64,000 bases of DNA from Dehalococcoidia bacterium (GTDB lineage: Bacteria > Chloroflexota > Dehalococcoidia > SHYD01): NCBI GenBank assembly GCA_965226775.1, contig CBDDEI010000002.1, positions 269,638 through 333,637 of the forward strand. Direction: 5' to 3'. The notes below the pieces were generated by a model, which saw only the letters and a list, made by a program, of their open reading frames with translations, ran no database searches and had not been told where the DNA came from. Positions 5,714 through 30,666 of the stretch are shown piece after piece; the stretch's first letter is position 1; every line of letters begins with the position of its first letter. The position numbers were made by a program, and so were the translations under genes.

Positions 5714-5789
5714 GCGGGTGTAGCTCAGCTGGCAGAGCGCTTGCTTCCCAAGCAAGATGTCGAGGGTTCGAATCCCTTCACCCGCTCCA
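5714..5789 (+). tRNA. tRNA-Gly (CCC)
   Basis: GCGGGTGTAGCTCAGCTGGCAGAGCGCTTGCTTCCCAAGCAAG...GGTTCGAATCCCTTCACCCGCTCCA. The 7-bp acceptor GCGGGTG/CACCCGC, anticodon loop TTCCCAA, T-loop GGTTCGAATCC and encoded CCA are all present. Confidence 0.85.
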
Positions 5790-6595: not shown

Positions 6596-8196
6596 GTGTC
6601 CCGTAACCTCCCAACGTGGTTCTGGGGCTGGTCCGCAGCCGTCCTGGCGGCAGCAGCGCTACCCTACCTGCTCGCGTGGGCGCTGGCGCCTAACGGCTAC
6701 CAGTTTACCGGCATGCTGGCGAACCCCCAGGACGGCTACTCCTATGTGGCCAAGATACGCCTGGCCGCCGAGGGCGGCTCGAGCGGCTGGAGCGGCTGGC
6801 TGCCCTACGCCATCCATGCCTATGGCGATGCCCCCATCTATCCGCAGTACGTGCTTTTGGGGAAGGTGAGCGCCGTCACTGGCGCACCGCCAGTTTTGGT
6901 CTATCATGGCGCAAGGGTTGCCGCCGCGGCGTTCCTGTTAGCCATGACCTTGCTCCTACTCAATCAACTTATCAAAAGCGAAGAGGCGCGCAAGACCGCG
7001 TTCATCTTTGCTGCGGTTGGGGGTGGCCTCACCTGGCTCACCGTGCCCTTTGGCGCGCTGGGATCAGACGTTACCATCCCCGAGTCGACGACCTTCGGCG
7101 GCAGCTTCGCTAACCCCCACTTCCCTATGGCAACCGGCCTGCTGTTCCTGGTGGCGATGGCAGCCCTCCGAGGCCCCCTCAGCAGCCCGCGCCTCGCCTT
7201 CACCGGCCTCCTCGCGAACCTCGCCGCCATCGCTATGCAGCCCTTCCTGTGGGTTACCCAGGTGGCGGTCGGCAGCGTATGGGCGGCGCTCATGATAGGC
7301 AAGGGGCGCACAACCCCCTCAGCCGTGCTGGCGCGCTGGCTATCGGCGGCTCTCCTCCTGGCCCCGTCGGCCCTCCTGCTGCTGCTTCTGGCGCGCGCGC
7401 TCTACGGAGACCCCGTCCTAGCCCAGTGGAGCGCGCAGAATGTGACGCTCTCGCCACCGCCTGCCACTTATCTCATTGGCTATGGCGCGCTGCTGCCTCC
7501 TGCGCTGGCGGGCCTGTGGACGCTGTGGCGCACACCGGACGAGGCGGGGTGCCCCCTCGCGCCGCGCTCTTCGTCATCGCGTGGGCTGTCGCCGGATGCG
7601 CGCTGCTCTACGCGCCCGCGCCCTTCCAGCGCCGCCTCAGTGAGGGCTTGCAGCTTCCCATCGCCGTCTTGGCCGCAGCCGGGATTCACAGTCCGCTGCT
7701 CGCCGCCCTGGGCGAAGCGTGGCGTAGGAGGACACGGCTGCTGGTTACGGCCATCGGGTGCGCGAGCATCTTCTGGCTCACCTACACCAGCGTGGCGGGC
7801 GCGCTCCTGCTGCGGGACGGCTTCTACTTGAGCGACGATGATGCCGCGGCCCTGACCTGGCTGACCGACAACGCTATCCGCGACGACCTGCTGCTGGCCG
7901 CGCCCGTCATCGGCAACGTCGCGCCGGTCTACGGTCCCGCCCGCGTCTACTGGGGCCATCCCTATGAGACGCCCACCGCGGCCTTGCGAGAAGCCGCCGT
8001 ACGCCGCTTCTACCAGCCCGAGACTGCAACCGCCGAGCGCTGCCGCATCCTAACCGAAGGCGATGTTACTCTCATCTACGCGGGCCCAAACGAGGCGCGT
8101 CTAGGCGGCGCAAGGCTGGACGATCAGGCGCTGGGGCTGGCATCGGTCTACGAAAATTCGAGCGTCACCATCTATCAGCGCGCGTCCGCCTGCTAG
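6596..8196 (+). CDS. polytopic membrane protein, putative GT-C-like glycosyltransferase (frameshifted near 7545-7560)
   Basis: ORF 6596..7831 is coherent and membrane-like up to ...LWRTPDEAG, then becomes P/S/R-rich nonsense. Frame-shifted ORF 7249..8196 becomes coherent from ...PRAALFVIAWAVAGCALLYAPAPF onward. The break is a 1-nt indel in GAGGCGGGGTGCCCCCTCGC. Merged length is about 530 aa. Confidence 0.5.
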
Positions 8197-8219
8197 ATAC
8201 GGACACTGGACACCGAGCC

Positions 8220-10517
8220 GTGACACTCCTGCGCGAGACCATTTTCACCAGCCGCTTGGCCGCACCGTTAGCCCTGGCAGCGCTCCCTGTCCTCTTCTTC
8301 TGGCGGCTCACCTTCCTGAGTGAGACCCTCTACTGGGGAACCCCCTTGCTCCAGTTCTACCCTTGGCGGTCTTTTGCTGTGCAGGAGTATCTCAGTGGAC
8401 AGATACCACTCTGGAATCCTCACGTGGGCCTGGGCGCGCCCCTGGCGGCCAACCTCCAGAGCGCTGTCTTCTATCCCCTAAACTTGGTCTATCTCCTTAT
8501 CCCCATTGAGCGAGCTATGACGGTCACGGTAGTGGGCCACATCGCGCTGGCCGGCCTCTTTTGCTACGGATTTGCCCGTCTTTTGGGGTTTAGCAAAGCC
8601 GGCGCATTCGTAACCGGGCTGACCTTTATGTTCAGCGGCTACGTGGTGGTAAGGGCGGGCTTCTTGAGCATGACCAGCGTGGTCGCGTGGCTCCCCGCGC
8701 TGCTCTGGAGCATCGAGGGCTTGCTCCGTGCTCATGCAGGTGGGCGTCGCAGCAGCGTTGCGTGCTGGCTGTGCGGCCTCGCGGCCATCACCGCGATGAC
8801 GCTCTTGGCCGGCCACGCGCAGCTCGCGGCCTACAGTCTGGCGGCGGCGAGCGCGTACCTCCTTGCCCGCTCCTGGTCTCGCTGGGGGCAGATGGCGACT
8901 GCCGGCGCGGGCCTCGCGCTGGGCGCGGCGCTGGCGGCGGTGCAGCTTCTTCCGACGCTTGAGCTAGCGCGCTACTCGGAGCGCCAGTCCGGCGTGGCCT
9001 ACGATGTAGCCACTAGCTCATCACTGTGGCCGGGGCAGCTTCTGGGCCTCCTCTTCCCCAGCTTCTTCGGCAGCCAGGCCGCCGGCGATTGGTGGGGGCC
9101 CGGACCCTTCTGGGACGGCGCGGTCTACGTGGGCGTCCTGCCTTTGCTGCTGGCCTGCTACGGACTACGCTTTGCGCCCAGGGGGCAGGCTTGGTTCTTC
9201 GGAGGACTGGCTCTCCTGGGCGCGTTCCTGGCGCTGGGACGATACAACCCGGTCTTCCCCTTCTTTTTCGACAACGTCCCCGGCATGAACCTCTTTCAAG
9301 GCCCGGCCCGCTTCTGGCTCTGGTGCACTCTTGCCGCGGCCATCCTGGCCGGCTATGGCTGGGAGGGCCTCCGGTCGCGCCTCAGTCCCGGCGGCTGGCG
9401 CTGTGGGCCCTGTTGCGGCGGCGGTCGGCCTAGGCGTCATCGGCGCATCCGCCGGCGCAAGCTTCGTACTGCCGCCCAGCACTGCGTTTGGCGCAGCGGC
9501 TATGGGCGGCGCTTGGCTCCTGGCGACGGGACTCCTCCTCAGTGTGCCGCGAGCGCGCTTCCCCCGTCTCTGGTCCGCGTACGCGCTCATGCTTATCCTC
9601 GCCGACCTCTCTATCTTCGGAATGCCCCTAAACACAACTACAAACGCGCAGCTCTATGAGTCGCCATCCAGCGCTGCGGCCCTTGCGCGGCGGACTGAAG
9701 CCGGCCTCGACCGCATCTACACGCCCGAGACTACTTATCAGTGGCTCCAGGAGCGCTACTTTAACTTGCGGGCCTTCCCTGCGGGCGACTGGCAGGACTT
9801 GCAGCGGCTGCGCGATGCGGCCATGCCCAACCTTGCCACCGCCGAGGGCCTGTACGAGGTCTACAACTACGACCCGCTCCGGCTGGAGCGCCCGCTCCTG
9901 GTCATGCGAGCCGCGGAGCCCAGGGATTCCAAAGCCCCCTGCTGGACATGCTGGGGGCGCGCTACATGCAGACGCCTGCGGAGCCGGCAGTGGATGCGGA
10001 TAGAGAGGGGAACGCCTTGGTCGTCCCACAGAAGCGCGCACGTCCCCTCCCGCGGGCCTACGTGGTATCGCACGTCTTGAGCGTCCCCACCAAAGCCGCT
10101 GCCCTAGCAGCCATCTCTGACCCAGCCTTCGACCCCGCTGCGACGGCCTTCGTGGAGAGCGGGCATCCTGTGCCTGAGGGCCGGCCCGGCGCGCTCCAGG
10201 CAGCCCGCATCGTGGAGTACGGCCCCCAGCGCGTGGTTATTGAGACGCCGGCCGCGGACGCGCCTGGCCTCTTAGTCCTGTCCGACGCCTACTACCCCGG
10301 CTGGCGCGCAGAGATTGACGGCCGCGCCGCCGACATTCTTCCGACGAACGTGGCCCTGCGCGGTGTGCTGCTTGCCGGCGGACCCCACCGCGTTGTCTTC
10401 CAGTACGATCCCCGCAGCTTCAAGATAGGGCTCACCGTCACCACCCTCGCGCTTGTTCTGCTGACGGCCATCGCGGTCTGGGGCTTGCGCGCCTACCGCA
10501 TGGAGCAGCCGGCATGA
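8220..10517 (+). CDS. YfhO-family membrane protein (GT-C-like), carrying two frameshifts
   Basis: Three successive ORF pieces (8220.., 9331.., 9948..) are each coherent only in part. The junctions at about 9380 and 9925 restore one roughly 765-aa protein. It has a YfhO-like C-terminus ...LVLSDAYYPGWRAEIDGRAADILPTNVALRGV.... Confidence 0.6.
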
Positions 10518-12664
10518 CCATGGAAACATCTGCGGACACCCCAAGGAGCACAGGCGCGCCCCGCACACTGCTAGTCTTTGGGTTGCTGGCCTGGGTGGCA
10601 ATAGTCACCGCGGCCTTCTACGCCGTCCACACTCCCATCTCACCGGCGATGGCTCAGGCCGGCCCGCTCTGGAGCACCCTCAGCGGTGGAGCCACTGCCG
10701 CTGCGCTGCTCCGCACTGCTCAAGACCTCGCAGCAGTCTTGGCGATAACTGTACTTGCGGTGGGCGCAGGTTCGCTCCTGCTGCAGCTCATCCTCCGCGG
10801 CCGCGTCATTGGCCACCTGGAGCGCTGGAGCTTCGGCGCGGCTCTGGGGCTTGGCCTGCTGGCCCACGCGTTCTTCCTGCTGGGGCTCGCGGGCGGGCTG
10901 CGTCCACTCCCCGCTTGGCTGCTCCTGGCCGTCTTTGCCGCGCTCGCCCTCGCCGGCTACATACGCTGGCCCTGGCCCCCGTGGTCGCGGGCGCCGGCCC
11001 GTCACGATGAGCCGCCGCTGGGGTTGCTGCCGCGCGTTGTGCAGGGCTTTCTCCTCATCGCGCTCCTCCTCACCCTCACCAGAGCTCTCGCGCCTCCCGT
11101 AGCCTGGGATAGCCACGTCTACCACCTCACCGCGCCGCTGCAGTACCTGGAGCAGGGAAAGATTACCGCGGGCATTGACGTGCCCCATTTCTACTTCCCC
11201 GCGCTGGTGGAGCAGCTCTACACGCTGGGCCTGCTACTGCGGGGGGACACTGTTGCCCAGCCGCTACACCTCGTCCTCGCTGCGGTCGGATTCCTCGCGC
11301 TCTTCGGATTCCTGCGGCAGCGCCACGGCGCGCGCGTCGCCTGGCTTGGGGCCGGCATACTCGCATCGTCCATCAGCCTGTGGTCCCTGGCTGGCTACGC
11401 CTACGTCGAGTGGGGCCTCCTGGCGTTCTGCACCCTTGCTTTCTGGGCGCTCCGCAACGCGCTCGACCAGGAGCGCGCGTCGTGGCTCCTCGTCTCCGGC
11501 ATCTGCTTGGGCCTCGCCCTGGGCGTCAAGTACACTGCGGCCTTCGTGGCGCTGGGATTGGGGAGCTACCTCCTCTGGACAACCATCAGGCGTGACACCC
11601 TCTTTGCCAAGTCCTTCCCCAACTGGCAGCACCTGGGCCTCTGGATGCTCACGGTCGCCACGGTAGCCAGCCCTTGGTATCTGAAGAACCTGGCCTTCAC
11701 CGGCAACCCCTTCTATCCCTTCTTCTTTGGCGGCCGGAACTGGGACGCCTGGCGCGACGCGTGGTTCACCCGCTGGGGCACGGGGCTGCTCCAGGAGCCC
11801 GTGCGGCTGCTCACCGCGCCCTGGGACCTGGGCGTCCTTGCCAGCGAGGGCAGCCTTCTCTACGACGTTTCCCTCTCGCCGCTCCTGCTCGGCTTCATGC
11901 CGCTGCTCCTGTTGCTGCGACGCGCCGCCGCCCCCTGGACGGCCTCGGCGCTGTGGGTGGCGCTGGTGGCCTACGGCGGCTGGCTCTTGGGCGCAGCTCA
12001 GTCGGAGTTGCTGCTCCAGGGCCGCTTGCTGCTGCCCGCGCTGCCCCTCTTAGCCGCCGCGCTGGCCGTGGCGCTGGCGGAGAGCCGTCGCCTCGCGCTT
12101 CCCTGGCTGCGGACATCCTTCCTGCTGGAAGCCACCCTCGTCCTTGTGCTCACCCTTCAGGGCCTCACCCTGGTCTCCCACTGGGCGGCCGATCCACCGT
12201 TGCCCTACCTCGCGGGCGCAGAGAGCCGCGAGGTCTATCTTGAGCGACACCTGGGCGCGCATTACCGTGCCCTCAACCACCTGAACCAGACCGTCTCACC
12301 GGAGGCCAGCGTCCTCTTCCTGTGGGAGCCGCGCACCTACCTCTGCCGCGTCCAGTGCCAGCCCGATGCGCTCCTCTACAACTGGCGAGACTTCCTCCGC
12401 CGCCATGAGGGGATCGACCCTGTCTACACCACGCTGCGGGAGCAGGGCTACACCCATATCCTGCTCAATGGCAGCGGGATGCGCTATTTCTCCACGCCGC
12501 CGCACGTGGAGCTGGGAGCGAGTCAGTTAGTGGACTTTGCCCGCTTCCAGTTGCGCTACCTGGAGCACGTGGCCGGCCCTACACTGGAGGAGATCCTGGC
12601 CGCGCCCAAGGGCGAGGTCGCCGGCCTTGAGTACACGCTGTATCACTTGCGGGACGCTGAGTAA
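10514..12664 (+). CDS. large polytopic membrane protein, putative GT-C glycosyltransferase
   Basis: 716 aa with 12+ predicted TM helices. The first extracytoplasmic loop carries APPVAWDSHVYHL (an acidic WD motif). There is a large C-terminal soluble domain. Its ATG overlaps the upstream stop (ATGA). Confidence 0.55.
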   Translation: MTMETSADTPRSTGAPRTLLVFGLLAWVAIVTAAFYAVHTPISPAMAQAGPLWSTLSGGATAAALLRTAQDLAAVLAITVLAVGAGSLLLQLILRGRVIGHLERWSFGAALGLGLLAHAFFLLGLAGGLRPLPAWLLLAVFAALALAGYIRWPWPPWSRAPARHDEPPLGLLPRVVQGFLLIALLLTLTRALAPPVAWDSHVYHLTAPLQYLEQGKITAGIDVPHFYFPALVEQLYTLGLLLRGDTVAQPLHLVLAAVGFLALFGFLRQRHGARVAWLGAGILASSISLWSLAGYAYVEWGLLAFCTLAFWALRNALDQERASWLLVSGICLGLALGVKYTAAFVALGLGSYLLWTTIRRDTLFAKSFPNWQHLGLWMLTVATVASPWYLKNLAFTGNPFYPFFFGGRNWDAWRDAWFTRWGTGLLQEPVRLLTAPWDLGVLASEGSLLYDVSLSPLLLGFMPLLLLLRRAAAPWTASALWVALVAYGGWLLGAAQSELLLQGRLLLPALPLLAAALAVALAESRRLALPWLRTSFLLEATLVLVLTLQGLTLVSHWAADPPLPYLAGAESREVYLERHLGAHYRALNHLNQTVSPEASVLFLWEPRTYLCRVQCQPDALLYNWRDFLRRHEGIDPVYTTLREQGYTHILLNGSGMRYFSTPPHVELGASQLVDFARFQLRYLEHVAGPTLEEILAAPKGEVAGLEYTLYHLRDAE

Positions 12665-14157
12665 TGGCAATAGTGCAGCGCTGGTGGGTGTTGGGAGTGA
12701 TCTGCGCGGCGGGACTGGCCCTGCGCTGGCCCAGCCCGGACCGTCAGCTGGAGTACGACGAGGTGGTCAGCCTGCTCTTTGCCCGCATGGACCTGGGGAC
12801 GATGGTGCAGGCCACTGCGGCGGACACCATGCCGCCCCTCTACTACGCGCTGCTCCACTTCTGGCAACTGCCGGGCGAGAGCCTTTTCCACGCCCGTCTG
12901 CTCTCCGTGATCCTGGGCGTCCTCACCATCCCCCTGCTCTATCTCCTGGGCAAGCGCCTCCTGGACGAGGGCACAGCCCTGGCGGGCGCGGCGTTGCTGG
13001 CCCTTTCGCCCTTCCACGTCTTCTATAGCCACTACGCGCGCATGTACGCGCTGCTGACCCTGCTCTCCGTCCTGGCCGTGCTGGCGCTCATCGGCTGGCT
13101 ACGCGGGGGCAGCCGTAAGGGATTGGTCATCGCGGTGCTGTCCACTATCGCGGCCCTCTACGTCCACAACCTCGCGGCGCTGCTGGTGCTGACCTTGAAC
13201 CTGCTCTTCCTGCTGACCCGCAACCGTTGGCCGGAGCAGGGCGCGCCACGTCCGCTGCGAGACCTTATGATAGTAGACGTGGTATTGGCACTGGCATGGT
13301 TGCCCTGGCTCTCCGTGCTGCCCGGACAGCTCGACAAGATAGCCGCCGCCTTCTGGATCCAGCATCCTGGAGCGGCAGAGGTCGCGCGCTCCGCCATCGT
13401 GTACCACTTTCACTTACCGTTGCCCGATTTGTGGTTGCCTGTTGCGGCCTTCCTGGCCCTGCTGCTCGTCGCGATTACTGCGGCGGAGGTGCGCCGGGTA
13501 TGGCTTGAGGAGCCGCCGCGCCGGGCCGGCCTCCTTGCGCTCATCACCTTAGCTTTGGCGCCGCCGGGCTTCATGTTCCTCCTGTCCCAGGCGCAACCCG
13601 TCTACGTGGAGCGGGGCATCCTCCTCTCGGCCTTGGCCTACTACCTCCTCCTCGCGCTGGCCCTGCGACGCCTGCCGCTGCGGCCTCTGGCCTGGGGCCT
13701 CACCGTCGTCTTTGGCCTGGCGCTGGGAGCGGCCCACGTCTACCAAGTGAGCTACGAGGCCTTCCCTCGCTCGCCCTTTGCCCAGGCGGCGGCCTACCTG
13801 GGCGGCGTAGTACAGCCCGGTGACCTGGTGCTCCACGATAACAAGCTGAGCTACTTCCCTACCTACTACCTTGCGCCGGAGCTGCCGCAAGCGTTCCTGG
13901 CCGACCCTCCCGGCTCGCCCAACGATACCCTCGCGCCCGGCACACAGCAGGCCCTTGGCCTCTACCCCGTCGCGCTGCCTGATGGCGTCGAGGGACGCTC
14001 CCGGGTGTGGCTGGTGGCCTTCGACCAGGCGCTGCAAGAGGGACGCGCCGCGGGCCAGCCACTGGCAAGCAAAGCCTGGCTGGACGACCGTTACACGAGG
14101 ACAGACCAGGCTCAGGTGGGCGATCTGCGCCTCTATCTCTATACCTTGGAGCACTAA
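12664..14157 (+). CDS. glycosyltransferase family 39 (PMT_2/ArnT-like) protein
   Basis: 497 aa. LEYDEVVSLLFARMDL...MPPLYYALLHFW...LSPFHVFYSHYARMYAL is the canonical PMT_2/GT39 N-terminal signature including the DE motif. The start overlaps the upstream stop (TAATG). Confidence 0.8.
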   Translation: MAIVQRWWVLGVICAAGLALRWPSPDRQLEYDEVVSLLFARMDLGTMVQATAADTMPPLYYALLHFWQLPGESLFHARLLSVILGVLTIPLLYLLGKRLLDEGTALAGAALLALSPFHVFYSHYARMYALLTLLSVLAVLALIGWLRGGSRKGLVIAVLSTIAALYVHNLAALLVLTLNLLFLLTRNRWPEQGAPRPLRDLMIVDVVLALAWLPWLSVLPGQLDKIAAAFWIQHPGAAEVARSAIVYHFHLPLPDLWLPVAAFLALLLVAITAAEVRRVWLEEPPRRAGLLALITLALAPPGFMFLLSQAQPVYVERGILLSALAYYLLLALALRRLPLRPLAWGLTVVFGLALGAAHVYQVSYEAFPRSPFAQAAAYLGGVVQPGDLVLHDNKLSYFPTYYLAPELPQAFLADPPGSPNDTLAPGTQQALGLYPVALPDGVEGRSRVWLVAFDQALQEGRAAGQPLASKAWLDDRYTRTDQAQVGDLRLYLYTLEH

Positions 14158-15732: not shown

Positions 15733-17212
15733 CCAGGCCATGCTTGCGCTGCGGCCTCAGGCGCTCCTGGCTGCGGTGCTGCTCCTGGCCTTTGGTTTAC
15801 GGGTGGTTACCCTCGGCCAGCAGAGCCTCTGGTACGACGAAGCCTTCAGCCTGCTCCTGGCGCGCTATGACTTAAGCGAGATCGTGGCGCGCACGTCTCT
15901 GGACACTATGCCGCCCCTCTATTACTGGCTGCTCCACCTCTGGGGCGCGGGTGCGCCGGTGGACTTCTCTCCTCGCTTGCTCTCCGCCATCGCGGGCACG
16001 CTGTCCGTGGCATTGGTCTACGCCGTGGGGCGGCAACTTATGGACTCAGGTGTGGGCCTCTGGGCGGCCCTCTTCACGGCGGTCGCGCCCTTCCAGGTCT
16101 TCTACGGCCAGGAGACCCGCATGTATGCGTTGTTGGGCCTCTGGAACCTCCTGGCTGCCTGGGGCTTCCTCCTAGGCTGGAAGGAGCAGCGACGCCTTGG
16201 CTGGGCGCTCTACGGCTTGGGCGCCGGCCTGGCCTTCTACACCCACGCGCTGGGAGGTCTGCCATCCCTGGCGCTCCTGGCTTGGGGCATGGCGGCTTCC
16301 GTCAACGCCCGCGAGCCTTCCCGGCTGCGCGCGCCCCTCATCGCACTCGTCGTGGCGGGCATCTGCTACCTGCCCTGGCTCACCGTGCTGCTGGGACAGG
16401 CGCGCGCCGTGTTGTCCTCCTTCTGGGCCAGTCCTCCCAGCGTTATCAGTCCCTTAGCGAGCCTTTACGTTTTCTTCCAGGGCCCCTTTGCCAACCCGGC
16501 GTGGATGCCCCTAGCCCTGACCGCCGTGCTTGCGCCCCTTGCCCTAACGGTCTACGCGCTCACCCGCCACCCCGGCCCCGACCCCGCAGACCTGAGCTTC
16601 CTCTGGGCGTGGCTGGCGCTCCCGTTGCTCGCCCTGCTTCTCTTCTCCCTCGTGCGTTCGGTCTACCTGGAACGGGTGGTCATCGGCGCGAGCTTTCCCG
16701 TCTACCTGCTCCTGGGCTGGGCCGCCGCCCGCCTTCAGCCGCGCGCGCTGGGCCTCGCGCTGGCCGCGGCGGTACTCTGCTCCGCCGGCGCGGGGCTGAC
16801 CCTCTGGTTTACCGACGCCGCTTACGGCAAGCCGCCCCTGCGCGCGGCCGCCGCGGCGGTCAACGAGGCGTGGCAGGAGGGCTCGCCGGTCCTGCACACC
16901 AGCGACGGCAGCATGCTCCCCTTCCTCCTCTACGCGCCCGATCTCCCCAACACCCTCCTAGACGGCGACCCCGAACGCGCCGGCCGCACTGCCCGCGCCC
17001 GCAGCACTTACGAAGCCTTGGGTATCGTCCCGCTGTCTCTCGAAGAGGCTGTGGGCGACGCGACTGAGTTCTTCCTGGTCGTCGCGCTGGACCACAGCGT
17101 AGCCTTCCAGCGCGCCCTCGCCGACCGCATCGACCAGCGCTACCGGCGCGTCGCAGAACAGGACGTGGGCGGTATCACCGTGCGACGCTATCAGACCGGA
17201 GCCGGGCCATGA
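15722..17212 (+). CDS. glycosyltransferase family 39 (PMT_2/ArnT-like) protein
   Basis: ...GQQSLWYDEAFSLLLARYDLSEIVARTSLDTMPPLYYWLLHLW...APFQVFYGQETRMYAL. Start chosen at ATG 15722 (an alternative is 15740). The ORF-track start 15620 overlaps the upstream gene. Confidence 0.8.
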   Translation: MPRNQAMLALRPQALLAAVLLLAFGLRVVTLGQQSLWYDEAFSLLLARYDLSEIVARTSLDTMPPLYYWLLHLWGAGAPVDFSPRLLSAIAGTLSVALVYAVGRQLMDSGVGLWAALFTAVAPFQVFYGQETRMYALLGLWNLLAAWGFLLGWKEQRRLGWALYGLGAGLAFYTHALGGLPSLALLAWGMAASVNAREPSRLRAPLIALVVAGICYLPWLTVLLGQARAVLSSFWASPPSVISPLASLYVFFQGPFANPAWMPLALTAVLAPLALTVYALTRHPGPDPADLSFLWAWLALPLLALLLFSLVRSVYLERVVIGASFPVYLLLGWAAARLQPRALGLALAAAVLCSAGAGLTLWFTDAAYGKPPLRAAAAAVNEAWQEGSPVLHTSDGSMLPFLLYAPDLPNTLLDGDPERAGRTARARSTYEALGIVPLSLEEAVGDATEFFLVVALDHSVAFQRALADRIDQRYRRVAEQDVGGITVRRYQTGAGP

Positions 17213-18381
17213 CCCCCACGCCGGCCTTGCTGCAAAACCCGGCCCTCCGCAGCAGCCTCAGGTCGGCGGCGACGGCGTTCCTCATTTCCCGGGGCTTTGT
17301 GCTGGCCGCAGTGCTGGCAGCGCCTTTGCTGCTGGTGCAGGAGGTCTCACCGGACCTGGTCCCGCCGCCCTACCATACACCGGCCTTCTGGGTGGTAGAC
17401 GCCCTAGCCCGTTGGGATGCCTGGCGTTATCTGAGCGTAGCCAGCATCGGCTACCGGGAGGGCTACCTGGGCGCAAACCCCCAGATCTTCCCCCTCTACC
17501 CTGCGCTCATGCGTCTACTGGGGGGCTGGTTTGGCGATGCAGGGCTTGCCTATGCCGGCTTCTTCATTGCCAACGGGGCCTTCTTTGCTGCACTAACGCT
17601 GCTCCATCTCCTGGTGCGGGAGCGCTACGACAAGGCGGTTGCGGATAGAAGCGTCCTCTACCTCGCCGTCTTCCCCACCTCCTTCTTCTTCAGCGCCCTC
17701 TACGCGGAATCGCTCTTCCTGCTGTTGAGCCTCGGCTGCTGCTACGCCTTGGAGCAGCGCCGCTGGGTGCTTTCCGGCGCGCTAGGCTTCTTGGCGGCGC
17801 TGACCCGCGCGCCGGGCGTTTTTCTCGTTATCGTGCTGCTCTGGGAGTTCCTCCGGCAGCCGGGCGGCCTGCGGCAAGCGAAACCGGCCCAGCTGCTCTC
17901 GCTCCTACTGCCGCCCGCCGGGCTATTGCTGTTCATGGGCGTCCTAGCCCAGCAGATAGGCGATCCGTTGGGCTTCGTGCGGGTGCAGACCCAGTGGGGC
18001 CGTGAACTGGAGCTGCCTACGGGCAACCTCACCAGCCTCATAGAGGCAGTCACCAGCGGTGGCGCGCAGTTTCCCACCTTTGGACTGCTCTTTCCTCTGA
18101 CCCTAACCATCCTCTTCATTGCAGTGGGCCTCAAAGCGCTGGGCGGGCTGCCTTCTCTGTACCGGGTGTGGTTCTGGGTCTATTTGGGCGTCATCCTCTC
18201 TGCTCCCGCGGGCGCGGCCTTCCTGAGCGTCACCCGCTTCCTGGCGGTGGCCTTCCCGGCGTTCATCGGCCTGGCCCGCTGGGGAGACCGGCGCTGGTTC
18301 CACCTGGGCTACCTCACCCTTAGCCTCCTCTTCCTCACCTTCAGCACCATCCTCTTCTCACGTTGGTACTGGGTGGCATAA
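17209..18381 (+). CDS. PIG-V/GT76-like mannosyltransferase family membrane protein
   Basis: 390 aa. ...FWVVDALARWDAWRYLSVASIGYREGY... resembles the conserved RWDA..Y..IA..GY region of GPI mannosyltransferase 2-like GT-C proteins. The ATG overlaps the upstream stop (ATGA). Confidence 0.5.
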   Translation: MTPTPALLQNPALRSSLRSAATAFLISRGFVLAAVLAAPLLLVQEVSPDLVPPPYHTPAFWVVDALARWDAWRYLSVASIGYREGYLGANPQIFPLYPALMRLLGGWFGDAGLAYAGFFIANGAFFAALTLLHLLVRERYDKAVADRSVLYLAVFPTSFFFSALYAESLFLLLSLGCCYALEQRRWVLSGALGFLAALTRAPGVFLVIVLLWEFLRQPGGLRQAKPAQLLSLLLPPAGLLLFMGVLAQQIGDPLGFVRVQTQWGRELELPTGNLTSLIEAVTSGGAQFPTFGLLFPLTLTILFIAVGLKALGGLPSLYRVWFWVYLGVILSAPAGAAFLSVTRFLAVAFPAFIGLARWGDRRWFHLGYLTLSLLFLTFSTILFSRWYWVA

Positions 18382-18391
18382 GGACGCTGGA

Positions 18392-20782
18392 ATGAGCCTG
18401 GCTCCCGCGGCGCCCTCGACCGCTTTGCCCTTGCTGCGTCTGGGCTTGGCCCTCACCGCGGCGGTGGCCTTTGCTCTGGACGCCGAGCCCTTCCACCGTT
18501 ACCTGCGGGCGGTAGCCATCACCCCGGAGCTGCTCCAGACGGAAGCGCCTCCCGGCTACCTGCGGGTCACGGCCTACACCCTCCTCGGCTTCGTCCTACT
18601 GCTCATCGCTGCGCAACGGCGTTTGGGAGCGCGTTCTCTCCACGTCGCCTTAGGCATCGGGTTTCTGCTCGTTCTGGTTCCCAACCTCCTAGCATCATTC
18701 AGCGCGCCTCACTACGGCGTGGACAGCGTCTCCTACACCCGCTACGCCACCGGCCTGCTGCTGGAGGGGAAGCACCCCTACGCCGATTTCGAAGCCGCCG
18801 AGGCGCTCCAACGCTACCCCGTCCGGGACACCGCGGTCACGTACACCAACGACGGCAGGCTGATGAACGTATTCAACTACCCGCCGGGGTCTTTCCTGAT
18901 CCTCGCCCCCCTCTACGTTTTGGGCGACATCGACCCGCGCTGGCTCTACGGCCTCGCGTTCTTCTTTATCGCGGCGATGCTGCTCTGGCGCGCGCCTCCC
19001 TCGCTGCGACCGCTGGCGCTGGGCTTTCTCGGCTTCCACCAGTTCTTCGCATTGTGGGCCGTTCCTGGCGGCGTCGCCGAGCCCCTCTGGATGGCCCTGC
19101 TGCTGGTCGCGTGGCTGCTGCGCGATCGCCCAGTGCTGGGCGGCGCAGTCCTTGGGTTGGCGCTGGCGGTGAAGCAATTCGCCTGGTTCTTTTACCCTTA
19201 CTACCTCATCATCGAGTACCGGGAGCGCGGCTTGCGGGCGGCTATTCAGGCAGGGGCCATTGGAGCAGGCGTCTTCGCGCTAGCCAACCTCCCCTTCCTG
19301 GTCACCGACCCCGCCGCGTGGCTGGAAGGCATAACCGCGCCCTTAACGCAGCCGCTGCCGCCCATTGGCATAGGCATCGCCCGCTGGGCCACCCTGGCCT
19401 TCCCGGACGTACCCAAGATGGCGTACACCTTGCTCCTAGGCGGCGGGATTATCGCAGCGCTGGGCGTCTTCTGGCGTTGGGGCGGGCGGTATCCGGCGCT
19501 CACCTTTGTGCTGCCCTGGCTGCCCCTCTGGTTCTCCTGGCGCTGTCTTTCGGCCTACTTCTACCTGATGCCCATCATGGTGCTCTTTGTCTTTTTTGAG
19601 CAGTGGCGCAAGGAGGATACGGCCGTGGCCGCCCAAAGTACGGCTCCCCTGCTCCTGCCGTTGTCGCTGCTCCTCGCCTCCCTGGTAGCGTTCGCACTGC
19701 ACAGCACCTACCAGGCCTACTTCCTGTGGGAGCTGCTGGTGAACCAGGGGATGCCTCTGTCGCAGCTCCAGGACTTGGCGCTCTTGAGCATGCTCCTGAC
19801 CACCCTAGGGCTGAGCCTTATCGTGACCGCAGCGATGGTGCGGGATCGCTCGCCCAGTGCCCTGCGCTTCTCCCTCTTCGGCAGCGGGCTGCTGCTGGCG
19901 CTGGTAACCCTGGCGGGTATTCAGAGTGCGCAGACCTACCAGGTGGACGCTGGACTCTCACCCCACTACGCTGCGGAGCTCCTACTGCGCGGCGAGAACC
20001 CCTACGAGGCATGGAACATGGAAGCCGCCGCGGCTCGTTTCAAGGTGCCGGAAGCGCTGCTGGTAACCGCTCCCTCTAAGGACGCCTTTGGCTATCCCGC
20101 GGGGTCTTTCCTACTCCCCGCGCCCCTTGTTGCCCTGGGCCTCCCGAACCTGCGCCTTCTCTATGGCTTTGCCCAGATAGCCCTGGTGGTGTTCGCCTTG
20201 GCGCGCGCGCCGCAAGCGCTCAAACCCATCACGCTTGCTGTGGCCACAACCATTGCGGGCCTGAGCTTCCTCTTTGCGGGCGAGGGCTACAACGACATCC
20301 TGCTGGCGTGGCTGCTGCTGGGCGCATGGCTCCTGCGCGACCGCCCGCTGCTGGGCAGCCTGGCGCTGGGATTAGGGCTGGCATTCAAGCAGGCGGCCTG
20401 GCCCTTCCTGCCCTTTTATCTCATTGTGTTGCACCGCCGTCACGGCCTCGCGCCCGCCCTCCGGGGAGCTGCCCTCTCTCTCGGACTCTTCCTGCTGCTG
20501 AACGCGCCCTGGGCGCTTACCGCTCCCGATGCGTGGGCCCGCGGACTGCTGGCTCCCGCCTCGGTGGCTACGCTCCCCATCCCGGCGCTGCTAGCCTTGA
20601 CGGGCTTTGGTCTTGCCATCGCCGTCTTCTACCGCTGGCGCAGCCTCTGGGAGCGCGCTGCGCTGGCCCTGCCCTGGGCGCCGCTATGGTTCACTTGGGC
20701 CAGCCAGTTCAGCCTCTTCCACACGCTGCCCCTAGTCTTCCTGACCGCGGCCGTGTCCGACAACCGCGAGGAGGAAGTATGA
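18392..20782 (+). CDS. membrane protein with tandemly duplicated DUF2029/GT87-like GT-C module
   Basis: 796 aa. The two halves are clearly homologous: LLEGKHPY/LLRGENPY; YPPGSFLILAPL/YPAGSFLLPAPL; AWLLRDRPVLGGAVLGLALAVKQFAWFFYPYYLI/AWLLRDRPLLGSLALGLGLAFKQAAWPFLPFYLI. Confidence 0.6.
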   Translation: MSLAPAAPSTALPLLRLGLALTAAVAFALDAEPFHRYLRAVAITPELLQTEAPPGYLRVTAYTLLGFVLLLIAAQRRLGARSLHVALGIGFLLVLVPNLLASFSAPHYGVDSVSYTRYATGLLLEGKHPYADFEAAEALQRYPVRDTAVTYTNDGRLMNVFNYPPGSFLILAPLYVLGDIDPRWLYGLAFFFIAAMLLWRAPPSLRPLALGFLGFHQFFALWAVPGGVAEPLWMALLLVAWLLRDRPVLGGAVLGLALAVKQFAWFFYPYYLIIEYRERGLRAAIQAGAIGAGVFALANLPFLVTDPAAWLEGITAPLTQPLPPIGIGIARWATLAFPDVPKMAYTLLLGGGIIAALGVFWRWGGRYPALTFVLPWLPLWFSWRCLSAYFYLMPIMVLFVFFEQWRKEDTAVAAQSTAPLLLPLSLLLASLVAFALHSTYQAYFLWELLVNQGMPLSQLQDLALLSMLLTTLGLSLIVTAAMVRDRSPSALRFSLFGSGLLLALVTLAGIQSAQTYQVDAGLSPHYAAELLLRGENPYEAWNMEAAAARFKVPEALLVTAPSKDAFGYPAGSFLLPAPLVALGLPNLRLLYGFAQIALVVFALARAPQALKPITLAVATTIAGLSFLFAGEGYNDILLAWLLLGAWLLRDRPLLGSLALGLGLAFKQAAWPFLPFYLIVLHRRHGLAPALRGAALSLGLFLLLNAPWALTAPDAWARGLLAPASVATLPIPALLALTGFGLAIAVFYRWRSLWERAALALPWAPLWFTWASQFSLFHTLPLVFLTAAVSDNREEEV

Positions 20783-22239
20783 CCAGCGCGGGCTTCGCCT
20801 TCCGTGCGCTTCTTGGTAGCGCCGCCCTCTACCTGTTCGCGGCCTCGGCGTTTGCCGGCGCACTCGGCTACCCACTAGATGACGCCTGGATTCATCAGAC
20901 GCTGGCGCGCAATCTGGTGGAGCGCGGCGAGTGGTCTATCAACCCCGGCACGCCCGCGGCCGTCTCCACCGCGCCGCTGTGGACGCTGCTGCTGACCCCG
21001 GCCTATCTGCTCCCCATCCCTCCGTTAGCCTGGACCTACCTTCTGGGAGGACTAGCCCTAGCCTGGGTTGCCTGGGAGACCTTTAAGCTAGCCACCCTCC
21101 TCTTTCCCGATGATGAGGAGTCGCCCGGCATGGCTGCGCTGCTGGTGCCCTGCGAATGGCACCTCATCTGGGCAGGCTTCTCCGGCATGGAAACGCCTCT
21201 CTTTGCCGCGCTCAGCCTTGCGGTGCTGCGGATGGGCCTGCAGCAAACTGCGCTCAACCTCCGGCACTGGGGCGTGCTGCTCACCCTGCTTGTCCTCACC
21301 CGCCCAGAAGGCTTGCTCCTAGGCGCACTCATTCTCGTGTGGCGGTTCTTCCGTCCGAGCGCGCCGGAAGGGTTGGTCGAAAGGCTGCGGCCGGTAATCC
21401 CCCTAGTCGTCGCGCTCCTGGCGCTGGGTGCCCTGAACCTCGCGTTGAGCGGCCAGCCTCTGCCCAGCACTCTTGTTGCGAAGAACGCCGCCTACGGCTT
21501 CGGCTTCGACCTCGCCGACTACGGGCGGTTCATTGCAGACGCTACGTTGGAGCTGTCCAGCGGCCTGCTCTTGCTGCTCATACCAGGCATCCTGTACACC
21601 ATCTGGCGGCGACTCCCCGGCGGCCATAGCGACGGCTGGTTGCCGCTGCTGTGGGTAGTGGGCCTGATGGGCGCGTACGCCGTCTGGCTACCGGCGGTCT
21701 ACCATCATGGCCGCTATCTTATGCCGTTGATGCCCCTGCTCCTCATCTATGGTGTCCAGGGCAGCCGCGCGCTGCTGCAAGCGCGCCCGTATCCGCTGCT
21801 TGCCGGCGTGGCCCCGTGGATCATGGCCGCTCTGGTTGCGATGTCCTGGCTGCGGGGCGCGGATATCTATCGAGAAAACGTGGCGTTCAGCCAAAAGCAG
21901 CAAGTGACCCTCGCCCGCTGGATTAGCCAGAATACGCCAGAGGACGCCCGCATCGCCGGCCACGACATCGGTGCACTGGGCTACTTTAGCCAGCGACCGA
22001 TCATAGATATGGCGGGGCTAGCAACCCAGGAACTCACCAACAGCCCCAAAGACGTCGAGCGCATCCTGGCTGTGCTTCAGGAGCAGGGTGTCACGTATCT
22101 GCTGGTGCAGCCGAGCTGGTTCCCGTCCCTTTACGCGCGCCTCCAAGCCGAGCCTAACGTTGAGGTGGTTCAGGAGGGACCCAAGACCATTCACGGGCCG
22201 TCTTACAGCTTCCAAGTGCTGCATTTTGGGGAGGATTAG
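20779..22239 (+). CDS. polytopic membrane protein, putative GT-C glycosyltransferase
   Basis: Start reassigned to ATG 20779 (GAGGAAG RBS; ATGA overlap with the upstream stop). The ORF-track start 20308 is antisense-overlapping garbage. ...LGYPLDDAWIHQTLARNLVERGEWS... plus multiple TM helices and a C-terminal soluble domain. Confidence 0.5.
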   Translation: MTSAGFAFRALLGSAALYLFAASAFAGALGYPLDDAWIHQTLARNLVERGEWSINPGTPAAVSTAPLWTLLLTPAYLLPIPPLAWTYLLGGLALAWVAWETFKLATLLFPDDEESPGMAALLVPCEWHLIWAGFSGMETPLFAALSLAVLRMGLQQTALNLRHWGVLLTLLVLTRPEGLLLGALILVWRFFRPSAPEGLVERLRPVIPLVVALLALGALNLALSGQPLPSTLVAKNAAYGFGFDLADYGRFIADATLELSSGLLLLLIPGILYTIWRRLPGGHSDGWLPLLWVVGLMGAYAVWLPAVYHHGRYLMPLMPLLLIYGVQGSRALLQARPYPLLAGVAPWIMAALVAMSWLRGADIYRENVAFSQKQQVTLARWISQNTPEDARIAGHDIGALGYFSQRPIIDMAGLATQELTNSPKDVERILAVLQEQGVTYLLVQPSWFPSLYARLQAEPNVEVVQEGPKTIHGPSYSFQVLHFGED

Positions 22240-22269
22240 TCAAACGCTGCAGTAAGTGCGCCGCGTCTC

Positions 22270-22300
22270 TTGACGCAGGTTGGGGAGGTAGCTCTACAAT
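22270..22300 (+). promoter_or_regulatory. candidate sigma70-like promoter for flp pilin gene
   Basis: TTGACG (22270-22275), a 19-nt spacer, then TACAAT (22295-22300). Located about 115 nt upstream of the pilin start. Confidence 0.3.
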
Positions 22301-22415
22301 AATCCATCGAGTTACGAGTATCAGGACCGGATAGCACATCTATACCCCCTGTATGATAAATGGAATTGTCCTTGTGCTTGGCGCTCGAAATCTATTGGAA
22401 GGGAGTAAGAGGGCT

Positions 22416-22565
22416 ATGCATTCCCTACTACGAAGGGAAGAAGGACAAGGTCTAGTTGAGTACGGGTTGATCATCTTCCTGGTTGCAATCGTAGTGATTG
22501 CCATTCTGGTACTGCTCGGCCCGCAGATTGGCGCCATCTTCAGCGGCATTACCGCCTCTATCTAG
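22416..22565 (+). CDS. flp: Flp/Fap family type IVb pilin
   Basis: MHSLLRREEGQGLVEYGLIIFLVAIVVIAILVLLGPQIGAIFSGITASI. It has the G/XXXXEY prepilin-peptidase motif, a hydrophobic helix, and a strong SD GGAAGGGAG upstream. The ORF-track start 22353 was shortened. Confidence 0.75.
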   Translation: MHSLLRREEGQGLVEYGLIIFLVAIVVIAILVLLGPQIGAIFSGITASI

Positions 22566-22663
22566 CCAATGCGTGGTGATTGCCCGGCTAGTACTCCTTG
22601 GCGCACCAACTGGCTCCAAGTCCATTAACATCACCGCATCCATCTAGCCAATTTGATAGGTAT

Positions 22664-22703
22664 TCAGAGGCGTCAGGTTCTACTCGTTAGTCCTGACGCC
22701 TCT
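22664..22703 (+). terminator. hairpin downstream of flp (13-bp perfect stem)
   Basis: CAGAGGCGTCAGG - 14-nt loop - CCTGACGCCTCTG. No strong U tract. Confidence 0.45.
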
Positions 22704-22825
22704 GCTGTACTCACACACTTCTCTCATCGCCGGCATGAGCTCGCTGTGACCAGACACCCCTTCGCAATAACCGACCCTCCTTCACTGCTCCCCGAACCAC
22801 GGATCAGCTCGACCGCCTGCACTCT

Positions 22826-24451
22826 ATGAGCGTCACACCCGCACCCCAACCGCCTCCTAGCGCCAGCGCAGAGGGTCGCTTGTCCCAAGAGCACGCCAGC
22901 GCGCTGCCCCTCAAGTACATCGTTGGGTTAGCCGTAGCAGCCCTGGCGGTGCTCGTCCTGGCCGCCCTCGCTTTCCATGACCCCGGCTACATGGACGCCT
23001 ACTACGCGTACCACGTGGCTGCCAACTTGGCCGCCGGCCGCGGCTTTACCGAGGACTTCATCTGGATCTACCTGACCAACCCGCCTTCCCTCTCGCATCC
23101 CAGCCATCTCTACTGGATGCCGCTAGCAAGCCTGCTAGCCTACCCCGCGCTCCTGCTCTCGGGCGAGCACTTTCGCGCGGCCCAAGCGCCCTTCCTGATC
23201 CTCAGCGCTGCGGCTGTCGTCACCACGGCGCTGCTCGCCCGGCAGCTGCTGCCCGGAACCTTCCGTCCTCTCGCGGCGGCGCTCCTCACCCTCTTTGCGG
23301 GCTACTACTTTGTCTACTGGCTGGCCGTGGATGCCTTTGGCGCGTTCACGCTGGCCGCACTCCTGGCATTTGTCGCGACGGCCGGCCTCCTGGAGGAAGA
23401 CCGGCCACTATCTCGCACGGTCCTGCTGAGCGCGCTCTTGGGCCTTGCAACCGCCGCCGCCCACCTGGCGCGCGCAGACGGCCCGCTGCTGCTCGCCGCC
23501 TGCAGCCTTGTCCTCATCGCATCTCAGCGACGGCGCGCTCCCCAGACCTGGCTCCTTCCCCTAGGCATCGCGAGCGCCGCCTATCTGCTGGTGATGCTCC
23601 CCTGGTTTCTCCGCAACTTGGGCGTGAGCGGCGCACCCCTGCCCAGCGACGGCCTGCAGACCCTCTTCCTCCGCGAGTACAACGATATCTTTTCCTACGG
23701 GCTTGCCCTAGACCTCCAGCACTACCTGGGAGAGGGCTGGGCAGCTATCCTAAGCGGCAAAGCTGTGGCCGCGCTGCGGAACCTGGGCGTCCTCTTTGGG
23801 CTGCAATACTGGCTGGTACCCTTTGCCGCCATGGGCTGGTGGGCGCTACGCGGTCGTCCTGTTATGCGCGCGCCCTTGCTCTACGGCGCGTTGCTCTACG
23901 GCGTCATGACCCTCCTCTTCACCTACCCAAGCAGCCGCGGGGCCATGCTCCACTCCAGCGTTGCGCTGCTGCCTTGGTTGAGCATCGCCGCGGTGCGGGG
24001 CATTGAGGTTGCGGTCTACTGGGCCGCGGCTCGCCGGCCCCACTGGAAGCCCGCCCTCGCTACCCGCAACTTCACCCTTCTGGCTCTCGTGGCCGCCGTG
24101 GCCGCATCGGGCTACGCCTGGTACGACCAGGCCCGCGGCTGGAGCGAGCAGGCCCAGACCTATCAGTCGCTTGCGCCCGCCCTCAACGCCGACGACCCAT
24201 CTGCCGTGCCTATGGTGCTTAATGCTCCCGCCTGGTGGTATGTATCCCGCCGCTCGGCTATGCTAACCCCCAGCAACGGCCCGGACGCCGCGCTGGCCGC
24301 AGCCGCCCGCTTTGGCGCGACCCATCTCATCCTCGAGCCGGCGCGACCCACCGCTTGGGAAGGCTTCGGCAAGGGCAGCGACCCGCGGTTCAGCCTGGTG
24401 TATGCTAGGGACAACTACGAGATCTATCGACTAAGCCCTGTACAAAAATAA
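22826..24451 (+). CDS. ArnT/PMT-like GT-C membrane glycosyltransferase (paralogue of 14158..15732)
   Basis: 541 aa. ...FHDPGYMDAYYAYHVAANLAAGRGFTEDFIWIYLTNPPSLSHPSHLYWMPL... aligns with the corresponding segment of gene 14158..15732. Confidence 0.65.
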   Translation: MSVTPAPQPPPSASAEGRLSQEHASALPLKYIVGLAVAALAVLVLAALAFHDPGYMDAYYAYHVAANLAAGRGFTEDFIWIYLTNPPSLSHPSHLYWMPLASLLAYPALLLSGEHFRAAQAPFLILSAAAVVTTALLARQLLPGTFRPLAAALLTLFAGYYFVYWLAVDAFGAFTLAALLAFVATAGLLEEDRPLSRTVLLSALLGLATAAAHLARADGPLLLAACSLVLIASQRRRAPQTWLLPLGIASAAYLLVMLPWFLRNLGVSGAPLPSDGLQTLFLREYNDIFSYGLALDLQHYLGEGWAAILSGKAVAALRNLGVLFGLQYWLVPFAAMGWWALRGRPVMRAPLLYGALLYGVMTLLFTYPSSRGAMLHSSVALLPWLSIAAVRGIEVAVYWAAARRPHWKPALATRNFTLLALVAAVAASGYAWYDQARGWSEQAQTYQSLAPALNADDPSAVPMVLNAPAWWYVSRRSAMLTPSNGPDAALAAAARFGATHLILEPARPTAWEGFGKGSDPRFSLVYARDNYEIYRLSPVQK

Positions 24452-24474
24452 ACTGCATATAGCAATCCACAAGT

Positions 24475-25032: not shown

Positions 25033-25042
25033 AGTGGGCAAT

Positions 25043-29469: not shown

Positions 29470-29524
29470 ACGGGGTTATCATACATTGCCACAGCTAGAA
29501 GGAATAAAATATGATAATGATGCT

Positions 29525-30658: not shown

Positions 30659-30666
30659 CATCGGCA

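Follow-up and report, generated by a model that had tools for sequence, protein, structure and literature searches.

Glycosyltransferases of the GT-C fold act on the outer face of the membrane with sugars carried on polyprenyl phosphate or diphosphate, as has been described for ArnT, Pmt, PimE, the Emb/Aft enzymes, YfhO and the oligosaccharyltransferases (PMC8035078, PMC11127046, PMC12041525). Both glycosylation of this kind outside the membrane and the presence of a GT-C gene in a pilin gene cluster are well known. For instance, the GT-C enzyme TfpW is encoded (with TfpX) in the pilin gene cluster of group IV Pseudomonas aeruginosa and glycosylates the pilin, arabinosylating its Ser/Thr residues in the periplasm from a polyprenyl-phosphate donor that comes from the cytoplasm (bioRxiv 10.1101/2020.04.19.049825). 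In streptococci, the Pgf system, consisting of a GT2 enzyme, an epimerase and two YfhO-like GT-Cs (Streptococcus mutans PgfS, PgfM1, PgfE and PgfM2), glycosylates surface proteins (PMC5856776), and here as in CsbB/GtrA/YfhO the GT2 makes a lipid-phosphate sugar which the YfhO-type GT-C transfers outside the membrane, the acceptors being surface proteins or teichoic acids (PMC5856776, PMC8035078, PMC5836110). We analysed a stretch of 64,000 nucleotides from a Dehalococcoidia bacterium of the phylum Chloroflexota (contig CBDDEI010000002.1, positions 269,638 to 333,637; hereafter the window), in which ten large co-directional open reading frames (ORFs) on the plus strand, G1 to G10 (6596-24451), encode predicted GT-C enzymes, and in which a gene for a pilin of the Flp (Tad, type IVc) kind lies between the last two of them. 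Our best reading is that we see here the enlarged version of a gene module which in Chloroflexota adjoins the Tad (Flp) locus or is part of it.

The locus is similar to that of TfpW in that a GT-C gene is found within a pilin gene cluster, but it differs in the pilin, which is of type IVa in the case of TfpW and a 39-amino-acid Flp (type IVc) here, and in the number of enzymes, with one multifunctional enzyme against up to ten different GT-Cs. In addition, the donor genes of the TfpW system are known (DprE1/E2 and a GtrA-like gene), whereas such genes are absent from the window. The likeness to Pgf lies in G2, a YfhO protein with weak PgfM1/PgfM2 matches in its C-terminal part, and in two relatives, L039 and L122, whose operon also includes genes for a GT2 and an epimerase. 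In contrast, Pgf has two GT-Cs rather than ten, its acceptors are large adhesins and not a pilin, and neither a GT2 nor an epimerase nor a GtrA flippase is found in the window. As for the mycobacterial and corynebacterial set (Pmt, PimE, EmbA/B/C and AftA-D), the Emb/Aft families (GT53, GT85 and GT89) were not detected here, the mycobacterial genes are dispersed over several loci and mixed with those for cytoplasmic steps, and the products are arabinogalactan, lipomannan/lipoarabinomannan and mannoproteins, without a link to a pilin. The AglB/STT3/PglB oligosaccharyltransferases glycosylate archaeal pilins and archaellins, but G1 shares with them the fold only: sequence similarity is undetectable, and the conserved motifs of the G1 family are NPxDGxSY and a C-terminal YxGHPxET (Y-x-G-H-P-x-E-T), while WWDYG is absent. 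An earlier reading of the window, made from the sequence alone (the sequence-only reading), had not recognised an operon made up of many different GT-C families as a described system, and the literature that we searched (GT-C, YfhO, GT87, GT39 and Chloroflexi) gave no description of a ten-GT-C operon from at least six families, nor of GT-C genes being associated with the Flp/Tad locus across a whole phylum.

The pilin gene was overlooked in the sequence-only reading, in which the interval between G9 and G10 had no gene and the operon consisted solely of GT-C genes. This interval of 586 nucleotides is occupied by the pilin gene and a hairpin, and a degenerate gene of the bacterial tyrosine kinase (BY-kinase) type, also missed before, stands at the head of the cluster (Table 1). 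The pilin ORF (whole 49-residue product MHSLLRREEGQGLVEYGLIIFLVAIVVIAILVLLGPQIGAIFSGITASI) has a good, GGAAGGGAG-like ribosome-binding site, and the prepilin, MHSLLRREEG/QGLVEYGLIIFLVAIVVIAILVLLGPQIGAIFSGITASI, shows the processing motif G/xxxxEY followed by a hydrophobic helix (REEG/QGLVEYGLIIFLVAIVVIAILVLLG). The Pfam Flp_Fap profile matches the product across profile positions 5 to 45 of 46 with an E-value of 2.4e-5 and a score of 24.5 bits, which is under the gathering threshold of 32.2 bits. Near-identical flp genes occupy the same slot in L001, L002, L038, L039, L040, L120 and L122, and the Tad assembly genes (cpaB/rcpC, cpaE/tadZ, cpaF/tadA, tadB and tadC) follow the orthologous flp in L039, L040, L122, L060 and many other loci. 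The 34 distinct mature pilins from the fetched loci have 39 to 59 residues, mostly 39 to 43, and in every one of them an F[S/T] pair lies some seven residues before the surface-exposed C-terminus; in the window pilin the C-terminal segment is FSGITASI, which contains the three C-terminal Ser/Thr residues. The RNA around the hairpin (22560-22720) has a predicted folding energy of -51.1 kcal/mol (z = -3.5; none of 200 shuffled sequences was as stable). The hairpin is not followed by a T-run and was therefore not reported by our consensus terminator scan; it is probably a terminator, an attenuator or an mRNA-stabilising element.

Table 1. Features of the GT-C/Flp locus, with positions counted from the first nucleotide of the window
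Feature	Position	Strand	Description
BY-kinase-like gene	5912..6538	+	apparently degenerate; 208 aa, 57 nt upstream of G1
G1	6596..8196	+	GT-C-fold, large family without Pfam model; frameshifted in the window
G2	8220..10517	+	YfhO-family GT-C; frame shifted from ~9400 to 9918 in the window
G3	10514..12664	+	716 aa, GT39-like (PMT_2 + PMT)
G4	12664..14157	+	497 aa, PMT_2 GT-C, YDE motif after first transmembrane segment
G5	14158..15732	+	524 aa, divergent PMT_2-like GT-C
G6	15722..17212	+	496 aa, PMT_2 GT-C
G7	17209..18381	+	390 aa, PIG-V-like (Mannosyl_trans2) GT-C
G8	18392..20782	+	796 aa, tandem fusion of two GT87-like modules
G9	20779..22239	+	486 aa, GT-C of a widespread Chloroflexota family without Pfam model
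Flp/Fap-type (Tad, type IVc) prepilin gene	22416..22565	+	49 aa; mature pilin would be 39 aa
Hairpin	22665..22704	+	13-bp stem, ~100 nt after the Flp stop codon
G10	22826..24451	+	541 aa, divergent PMT_2/GT39-like GT-C, 3' of the pilin gene

The genes are not scattered in relatives. L002, the complete chromosome OZ244809.1 of a metagenome-assembled Dehalococcoidia bacterium with 95% nucleotide identity to the window, has all ten GT-C genes with the whole block conserved, and L035, L120/L038 and L122 keep large parts of it. In L035 (53% amino acid identity), the BY-kinase-like gene comes first and G1 to G7 come after it, as far as the fetched sequence reaches. In L120 and L038 the order is G2-G3-G4-G5-G9-Flp-G10, with only 20 nucleotides between the pilin gene and G10. 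In L122 and L039 the order is GT2, methyltransferase, a protein of ~768 residues, epimerase, PMT_2, G6-like, G9, Flp, G10, CpaB-like, CpaF, TadB and TadC, with an additional G8-like gene between the G6-like gene and G9 in L122, so the pilin gene and its two flanking GT-C genes lie inside the Tad operon beside a candidate donor synthase. Furthermore, in L121 a unit made up of three Flp genes and then G10 is flanked on either side by transposase genes, and L040 has G9-Flp-Flp and then CpaF-TadB-TadC. The order G9-Flp-G10 is thus found in the window, L002, L038, L039, L120 and L122, including relatives at 45-60% amino acid identity, and the genes flanking flp are conserved as glycosyltransferases in the window and its relatives, as in pilin-specific systems of the TfpW/TfpO type. 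The linkage of G9/G10 with Flp survives at least four different gene orders, which is the pattern expected of a functional partnership.

The genes upstream of the GT-C genes in L039 (32-6962) and L122 (1-4269), namely those for the GT2, the methyltransferase, the ~768-residue protein and an epimerase/dehydratase of the SDR family, are candidates for donor-sugar synthesis, and the methyltransferase hints at a methylated sugar; split transketolase subunits are also encoded upstream in L039 only. According to the sequence-only reading, no GT-A/GT-B glycosyltransferase, flippase or Wzx/Wzy gene is interleaved in the cluster. This is true of the window, where none of these families, nor any Tad assembly family, was found among the scanned ORFs (nearly all of those with at least 150 codons), but it does not extend to a general trait: because the GT2, methyltransferase and epimerase genes stand upstream in L039 and L122, the absence of cytoplasmic partners is local to this lineage.

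To describe this association more broadly, 80 metagenome loci were fetched by alignment to the G9 family alone, and hence the sample was not chosen for pilins. These loci are phylogenetically non-independent, and the fractions given here describe the sample and are not probabilities; the Flp genes were detected by a strict motif (a regular expression), so that the Flp counts are lower bounds. A same-strand Flp gene was found within 3.5 kb downstream of the G9 homologue in 19 of 40 loci, whereas none of 38 had one upstream, and cpaF was found within 8 kb in 14 of 26. G9 is the gene most constantly located beside Flp/Tad genes in the relatives. In most loci with upstream sequence, a G10-like gene is located immediately 5' of the G9 homologue, and G3-, G4-, G1- or G7-like genes often occur farther upstream of this pair, showing that multi-GT-C clusters are common in Chloroflexota metagenome loci. 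Genes for a LuxR-type response regulator and a histidine kinase lie directly 3' of the G9 homologue in 41 of 53 assessable loci. For example, the full order in L060 is G3-like, G10-like, G9-like, response regulator, histidine kinase, Flp, CpaB, CpaE, CpaF, TadB and TadC. This pair, with a DegS-like histidine kinase (L060 11462-13213), stands between the GT-C and the Flp/Tad genes and is absent from the lineage of the window; it is a candidate regulator of both groups of genes. A GT-C cluster of another composition was seen in a different organism (L032, 10001-21593), where a G1-like gene, a YfhO gene, a second G1-like gene, another YfhO gene, a gene of 530 codons on the opposite strand and a PMT_2 gene adjoin molybdopterin oxidoreductase genes.

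The assignment of all ten products to the GT-C type, and to several different families within it, agrees with the sequence-only reading and is based on sequence or structural similarity to established GT-C families; the profile searches assigned none of the ten to unrelated transporter or permease families. With Pfam (gathering thresholds of 26.1 bits for PMT_2, 28.5 for YfhO and 22.4 for Mannosyl_trans2; a limit of 25 bits for GT87), G3 scored 45.6 bits for PMT_2 and 34.8 bits for PMT, both above the cut-offs, and by these scores it is the member of the ten nearest to true protein O-mannosyltransferases. G4 and G6, in which a GT39 DE motif had been noted and both of which have YDE after the first transmembrane segment, scored 44.9 and 52.7 bits for PMT_2 and are paralogues with 34.5% identity; for G6 the same 496-residue call is found in L001. 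The YfhO assignment of G2 was borne out with the intact L002 orthologue (E = 3.4e-18, 65.9 bits), and the fragments in the window gave 32.9 bits for the C-terminal and 18.3 bits for the N-terminal part. G7 was borderline (23.5 bits for Mannosyl_trans2, covering only profile positions 57-192 of 443) and also matched the NCBIfam family AZOBR_p60025, "cell surface glycopolymer formation protein", with an E-value of 1.2e-10 and 41 bits, under its cut-off of 150. The duplicated DUF2029-like module reported for G8 was recovered as a GT87 match (33.6 bits) to residues 161-373 in the N-terminal half; its halves share 38% identity across 338 residues (E = 3e-36), so that the duplication is real and G8 is a tandem fusion of two GT87 modules, and its orthologue in L122 has 843 residues.

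No Pfam match was obtained for G1, G5, G9 and G10. G5 and G10 are paralogues (28% identity, E = 6e-21), the L035 orthologue of G5 has a weak PMT_2 match, and about half of the G10 homologues among those listed carry PF13231, some of them being named GT39 or ArnT-like. When a joint G5/G10 profile was compared with that of G9, the two aligned over 400 columns with 98.7% probability. Acidic residues that come directly after the first hydrophobic segment do not vary among the homologues in those proteins for which this was tested, i.e., D46 in G1, D34/D35 in G9 and D57 in G10, in accordance with the first-loop acidic motifs previously noted in G9 and G10. Searches of PDB chain sequences with G1, G5, G8 and G9 and with the A1, A2 and A3 profiles gave nothing meaningful, and comparison of folds was therefore needed. 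The best fold matches of the G9 model (mean predicted local distance difference test score, pLDDT, 92) were ALG12 (22.3), ArnT (21.7), GPI-MT-I (20.3) and AglB/STT3B/AftB (20.1). The closest structural matches of G1 were the oligosaccharyltransferases STT3/STT3B and AglB; however, ArnT and AftA scored nearly as high, and the fold match therefore does not establish oligosaccharyltransferase activity. Neither the single G1 sequence nor its family profile matched an oligosaccharyltransferase in the PDB by sequence. The families of G1 and G9 are large, with 8620 representative clusters for G1 in an exhaustive profile search and at least 700 sequence clusters for G9, and none of ten sampled members of the G1 family had a Pfam match to the G1-like region. 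The impression that G1 belongs to a tiny orphan family, from the 19 proteins found in a word-indexed search, was a sensitivity artefact. One protein of 1391 residues (P0272) is a fusion of an N-terminal YfhO-type part (YfhO C-terminus at 663-722) with a G1-family part (residues 804-1357), which suggests that G1 and G2, neighbours in the window, act together. In place of the 10-14 helices claimed for each protein, a crude hydropathy count, on which the membrane topology rests and which is a lower bound, gave 6 to 15 hydrophobic segments.

The ten genes form a single closely packed block, and their coordinates and start/stop junctions are those of the sequence-only reading: the intervals are +23 nucleotides for G1/G2, -4 (ATGA) for G2/G3, -1 (TAATG) for G3/G4, 0 (TAAATG) for G4/G5, -11 for G5/G6, -4 (ATGA) for G6/G7, +10 for G7/G8 and -4 (ATGA) for G8/G9. 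The proposal that all ten form one translationally coupled operon holds for G2 to G9 at most and fails for G10, because the pilin gene and the hairpin part G10 from G9. The only sigma-70-like promoter match between 5500 and 25000 was located just before a tRNA-Gly gene upstream of the cluster, and the intragenic terminator-like matches in the consensus scan (19, against a mean of 11.9 in shuffled sequences) are a modest and uninformative excess.

Since G9/G10 are linked to Flp through at least four gene orders, which mirrors the place of tfpW in its pilin gene cluster, and since the GT2, epimerase and YfhO-type GT-C composition in L039 and L122 mirrors that of Pgf, we rank first the explanation that this expanded, Tad-pilus-linked set of GT-Cs acts outside the membrane with lipid-linked donors and glycosylates the Flp pilin, and we hold it with somewhat less than even confidence. 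The ten enzymes would work at the outer surface of the cytoplasmic membrane, each using single sugars delivered on polyprenyl phosphate. A GT2 whose gene lies elsewhere in the genome, but is adjacent in L039 and L122, would supply these carriers. The acceptor would be exposed Ser/Thr residues in the C-terminal FSGITASI of the pilin, the first sugar would be added by a GT39-like enzyme (G3, G10 or G9), and the PMT_2 paralogues, the YfhO protein, the PIG-V-like enzyme, the double GT87 and the oligosaccharyltransferase-like G1 would extend or branch the glycan by one sugar each, before the pilin is polymerised by Tad machinery encoded elsewhere in the genome. Gene neighbourhood and family membership are the grounds on which we propose this acceptor, this donor and this sequence of steps, and we infer the use of lipid-linked donors from the behaviour of GT-C families. 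The stepwise, lipid-linked assembly on the outer face that the sequence-only reading proposed is thus still the most reasonable mechanism for such enzymes, by family behaviour; of the two products it proposed, a lipoglycan of the Emb/Aft type found no specific support, and protein O-glycosylation fits the new context better, with Flp as the candidate acceptor.

Several observations weigh against pilin glycosylation. The link to the pilin is one of gene neighbourhood only, ten enzymes are many for a 39-residue pilin with three C-terminal Ser/Thr, and G1 and G2 are frameshifted in this window, where no Tad assembly gene, GT2 or flippase was found. In 12 of the 53 assessable loci the two-component genes do not follow G9, and in the five examined unrelated housekeeping genes follow instead; in the distant loci that have the two-component pair, it parts the GT-C genes from Flp, making them neighbours and not one operon. 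Moreover, the kinase family of the head gene is one of polysaccharide biosynthesis, and G7 resembles the "cell surface glycopolymer formation" family. Finally, glycan density is absent from the one Tad pilus structure that was consulted, that of Caulobacter (PMC10710030), and therefore Flp glycosylation would not be universal.

A narrower form of the pilin explanation, in which a dedicated all-GT-C pathway assembles its glycan outside the membrane and straight onto the Flp (Tad) pilin, with the G9 and G1 families as its signature enzymes, is a tentative possibility. If true, then as far as the searched literature shows, type IVc pili would thereby gain their first defined glycosylation machinery, and this would be the first glycan assembly line in which a GT-C catalyses every transfer step. 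If the pilin is the acceptor, type IVc pili would join type IVa and archaeal pili among those with glycosylated pilins, and the locus would show that nature makes a glycan solely with enzymes dependent on lipid-phosphate sugars. For all bacteria with Flp pili, this would bear on adhesion, immune evasion and resistance to phages. The association gives a working context to two large uncharacterised families of membrane proteins, G1 and G9, neither of which was matched by Pfam in our scans. A GT-C set tied to Flp provides a testable handle on filament and envelope decoration in these abundant, poorly cultivated bacteria. Tad pili are the pilus system of the Chloroflexota examined and have been proposed to serve adhesion and motility (PMC7332563, PMC13319060).

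The main rival is that the enzymes produce a glycopolymer of the envelope, attached to a lipid or to the cell wall (a lipoglycan, a secondary cell-wall polysaccharide, a sheath or an adhesive matrix), with the pilin not being the acceptor and the genes adjoining the Tad locus since both serve co-regulated adhesion or surface structures, an explanation that we regard as possible but doubtful. Holdfast and Tad pili in Caulobacter are surface structures that are regulated together, and proteins of the BY-kinase family, a member of which heads the operon, normally go with polysaccharide synthesis. The product of this head gene scored 115 bits against NCBIfam TIGR01007 (polysaccharide-biosynthesis tyrosine autokinase; cut-off 108.05) and has Pfam ParA/AAA_31/CbiA/BcsQ matches, and its orthologue in L035 overlaps the start of G1. 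However, its Walker A site reads GTGRS instead of the expected GxGK[ST], lacking the Lys, its Walker B site (VVLNLPP) lacks the Asp, and its C-terminus (...GILLSNAAP) has no Tyr cluster; judged by these residues it should not be classed as an active BY-kinase. The match of G7 to a glycopolymer-formation family, the two-component system that separates Flp from the GT-C genes in most of the distant loci, the ~23% of G9-homologue loci without that pair 3' of G9, and the large number of enzymes for so small a pilin all fit a glycopolymer, as does the proposal that the layered envelopes of Chloroflexota consist of polysaccharide or protein (PMC13319060). In contrast, no family for Wzx/Wzy, Wzz, an ABC exporter or a priming transferase was found in the window, and a glycopolymer leaves unexplained why Flp stands between G9 and G10, at a spacing of 20 nucleotides from the latter in L120, and why three Flp genes and G10 form a unit between transposase genes in L121. 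As a separate matter, the P-loop head protein was considered as a TadZ/CpaE and rejected, because its similarity to the CpaE of L060 is marginal (E = 0.044) and NCBIfam gives the BY-kinase family.

It is unlikely, in our judgement, that the pathway is decaying in this genome, in the sense that the frameshifts are real, the surroundings have lost their Tad assembly genes and part of the cluster no longer functions. The sequence-only reading missed that G1 and G2 are broken; alignment with L002 revealed single-nucleotide indels in both, a deletion near 7552 in G1, and an insertion near 9400 and a deletion near 9918 in G2, and each is split over several ORFs in the window while being intact in L002 at 531 and 763 residues. 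These indels, the lack of Tad assembly genes downstream, unlike in L039 and L122, and a foreign insertion of 2.9 kb with a restriction-modification gene directly after G10 would fit decay. However, unrelated genes of the window are also split, namely a carboxylic-acid-reductase-like gene (AMP-binding and PP-binding / NAD_binding_4) found as two overlapping ORFs at 45770-48587 and a lone periplasmic-binding-protein fragment at 36693-37190, which suggests assembly indel errors there, and the related long-read metagenome contigs P0002, P0022, P0028 and P0144 have different frameshifts in G1/G2, a pattern typical of such errors. For these reasons, assembly errors are likelier than true pseudogenes and are probably the origin of the indels in G1 and G2. 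In addition, the two indels of G2 restore the frame, and none of the other eight genes is broken, their starts and stops being tightly coupled.

The Pmt enzymes of actinobacteria glycosylate a wide range of secreted proteins. General protein O-glycosylation outside the membrane, with a broad set of secreted and surface targets (for instance, the S-layer protein and substrate-binding lipoproteins) of which Flp would be one or not even that, would agree with the PMT (GT39) score of G3 above threshold, with STT3B and AglB as best structural matches of G1, with the S-layers of cultivated Dehalococcoidia (PMC10284905) and with the streptococcal GT-C systems that modify several Ser/Thr-rich membrane-associated proteins (PMC12041528), but it is quite improbable, as it offers no obvious reason for linkage to one pilin gene through several rearrangements, and no gene for an S-layer protein or other candidate acceptor was found in or beside the cluster within the window.

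The surroundings of the cluster show other features. A tRNA-Gly(CCC) gene (5714-5789) is located ~120 nucleotides 5' of the BY-kinase-like gene, and a tRNA-Ala(CGC) gene (31460-31535) lies farther downstream. A genomic island at the tRNA-Gly gene was considered and rejected: the G+C content at third codon positions (GC3) of the cluster, 0.74-0.85, matches that of core genes (0.81 for the amidase gene, 0.78 for ComM and 0.80 for NifS), so that its composition is native; its raw G+C content is high, 0.65-0.68. The genes after the amidase gene (28963-31254) were likewise considered as Tad-like and rejected, with neither family matches nor pilin-like N-termini. The foreign parts of the window are the low-GC ones and not the GT-C cluster. 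Directly after G10, the insertion at 24445-27328 (GC3 0.44), absent from L001 and L002, contains an ORF with a weak match to an AHJR-like nuclease (24475-25032) that overlaps an N6_Mtase/MmeI_Mtase ORF (24926-27334), and it looks like a single frameshifted type IIG/MmeI-like restriction-modification gene. Another low-GC block (35710-39881, GC3 ~0.5), with genes for an APH-family phosphotransferase, a DUF2971 protein and a 525-residue ThiF-family protein, may be a foreign or defence-related segment, and on the minus strand at 58702-61157 there is a McrBC-type restriction pair consisting of McrC (PF10117, E = 2e-53) and an AAA_5 GTPase-like McrB.

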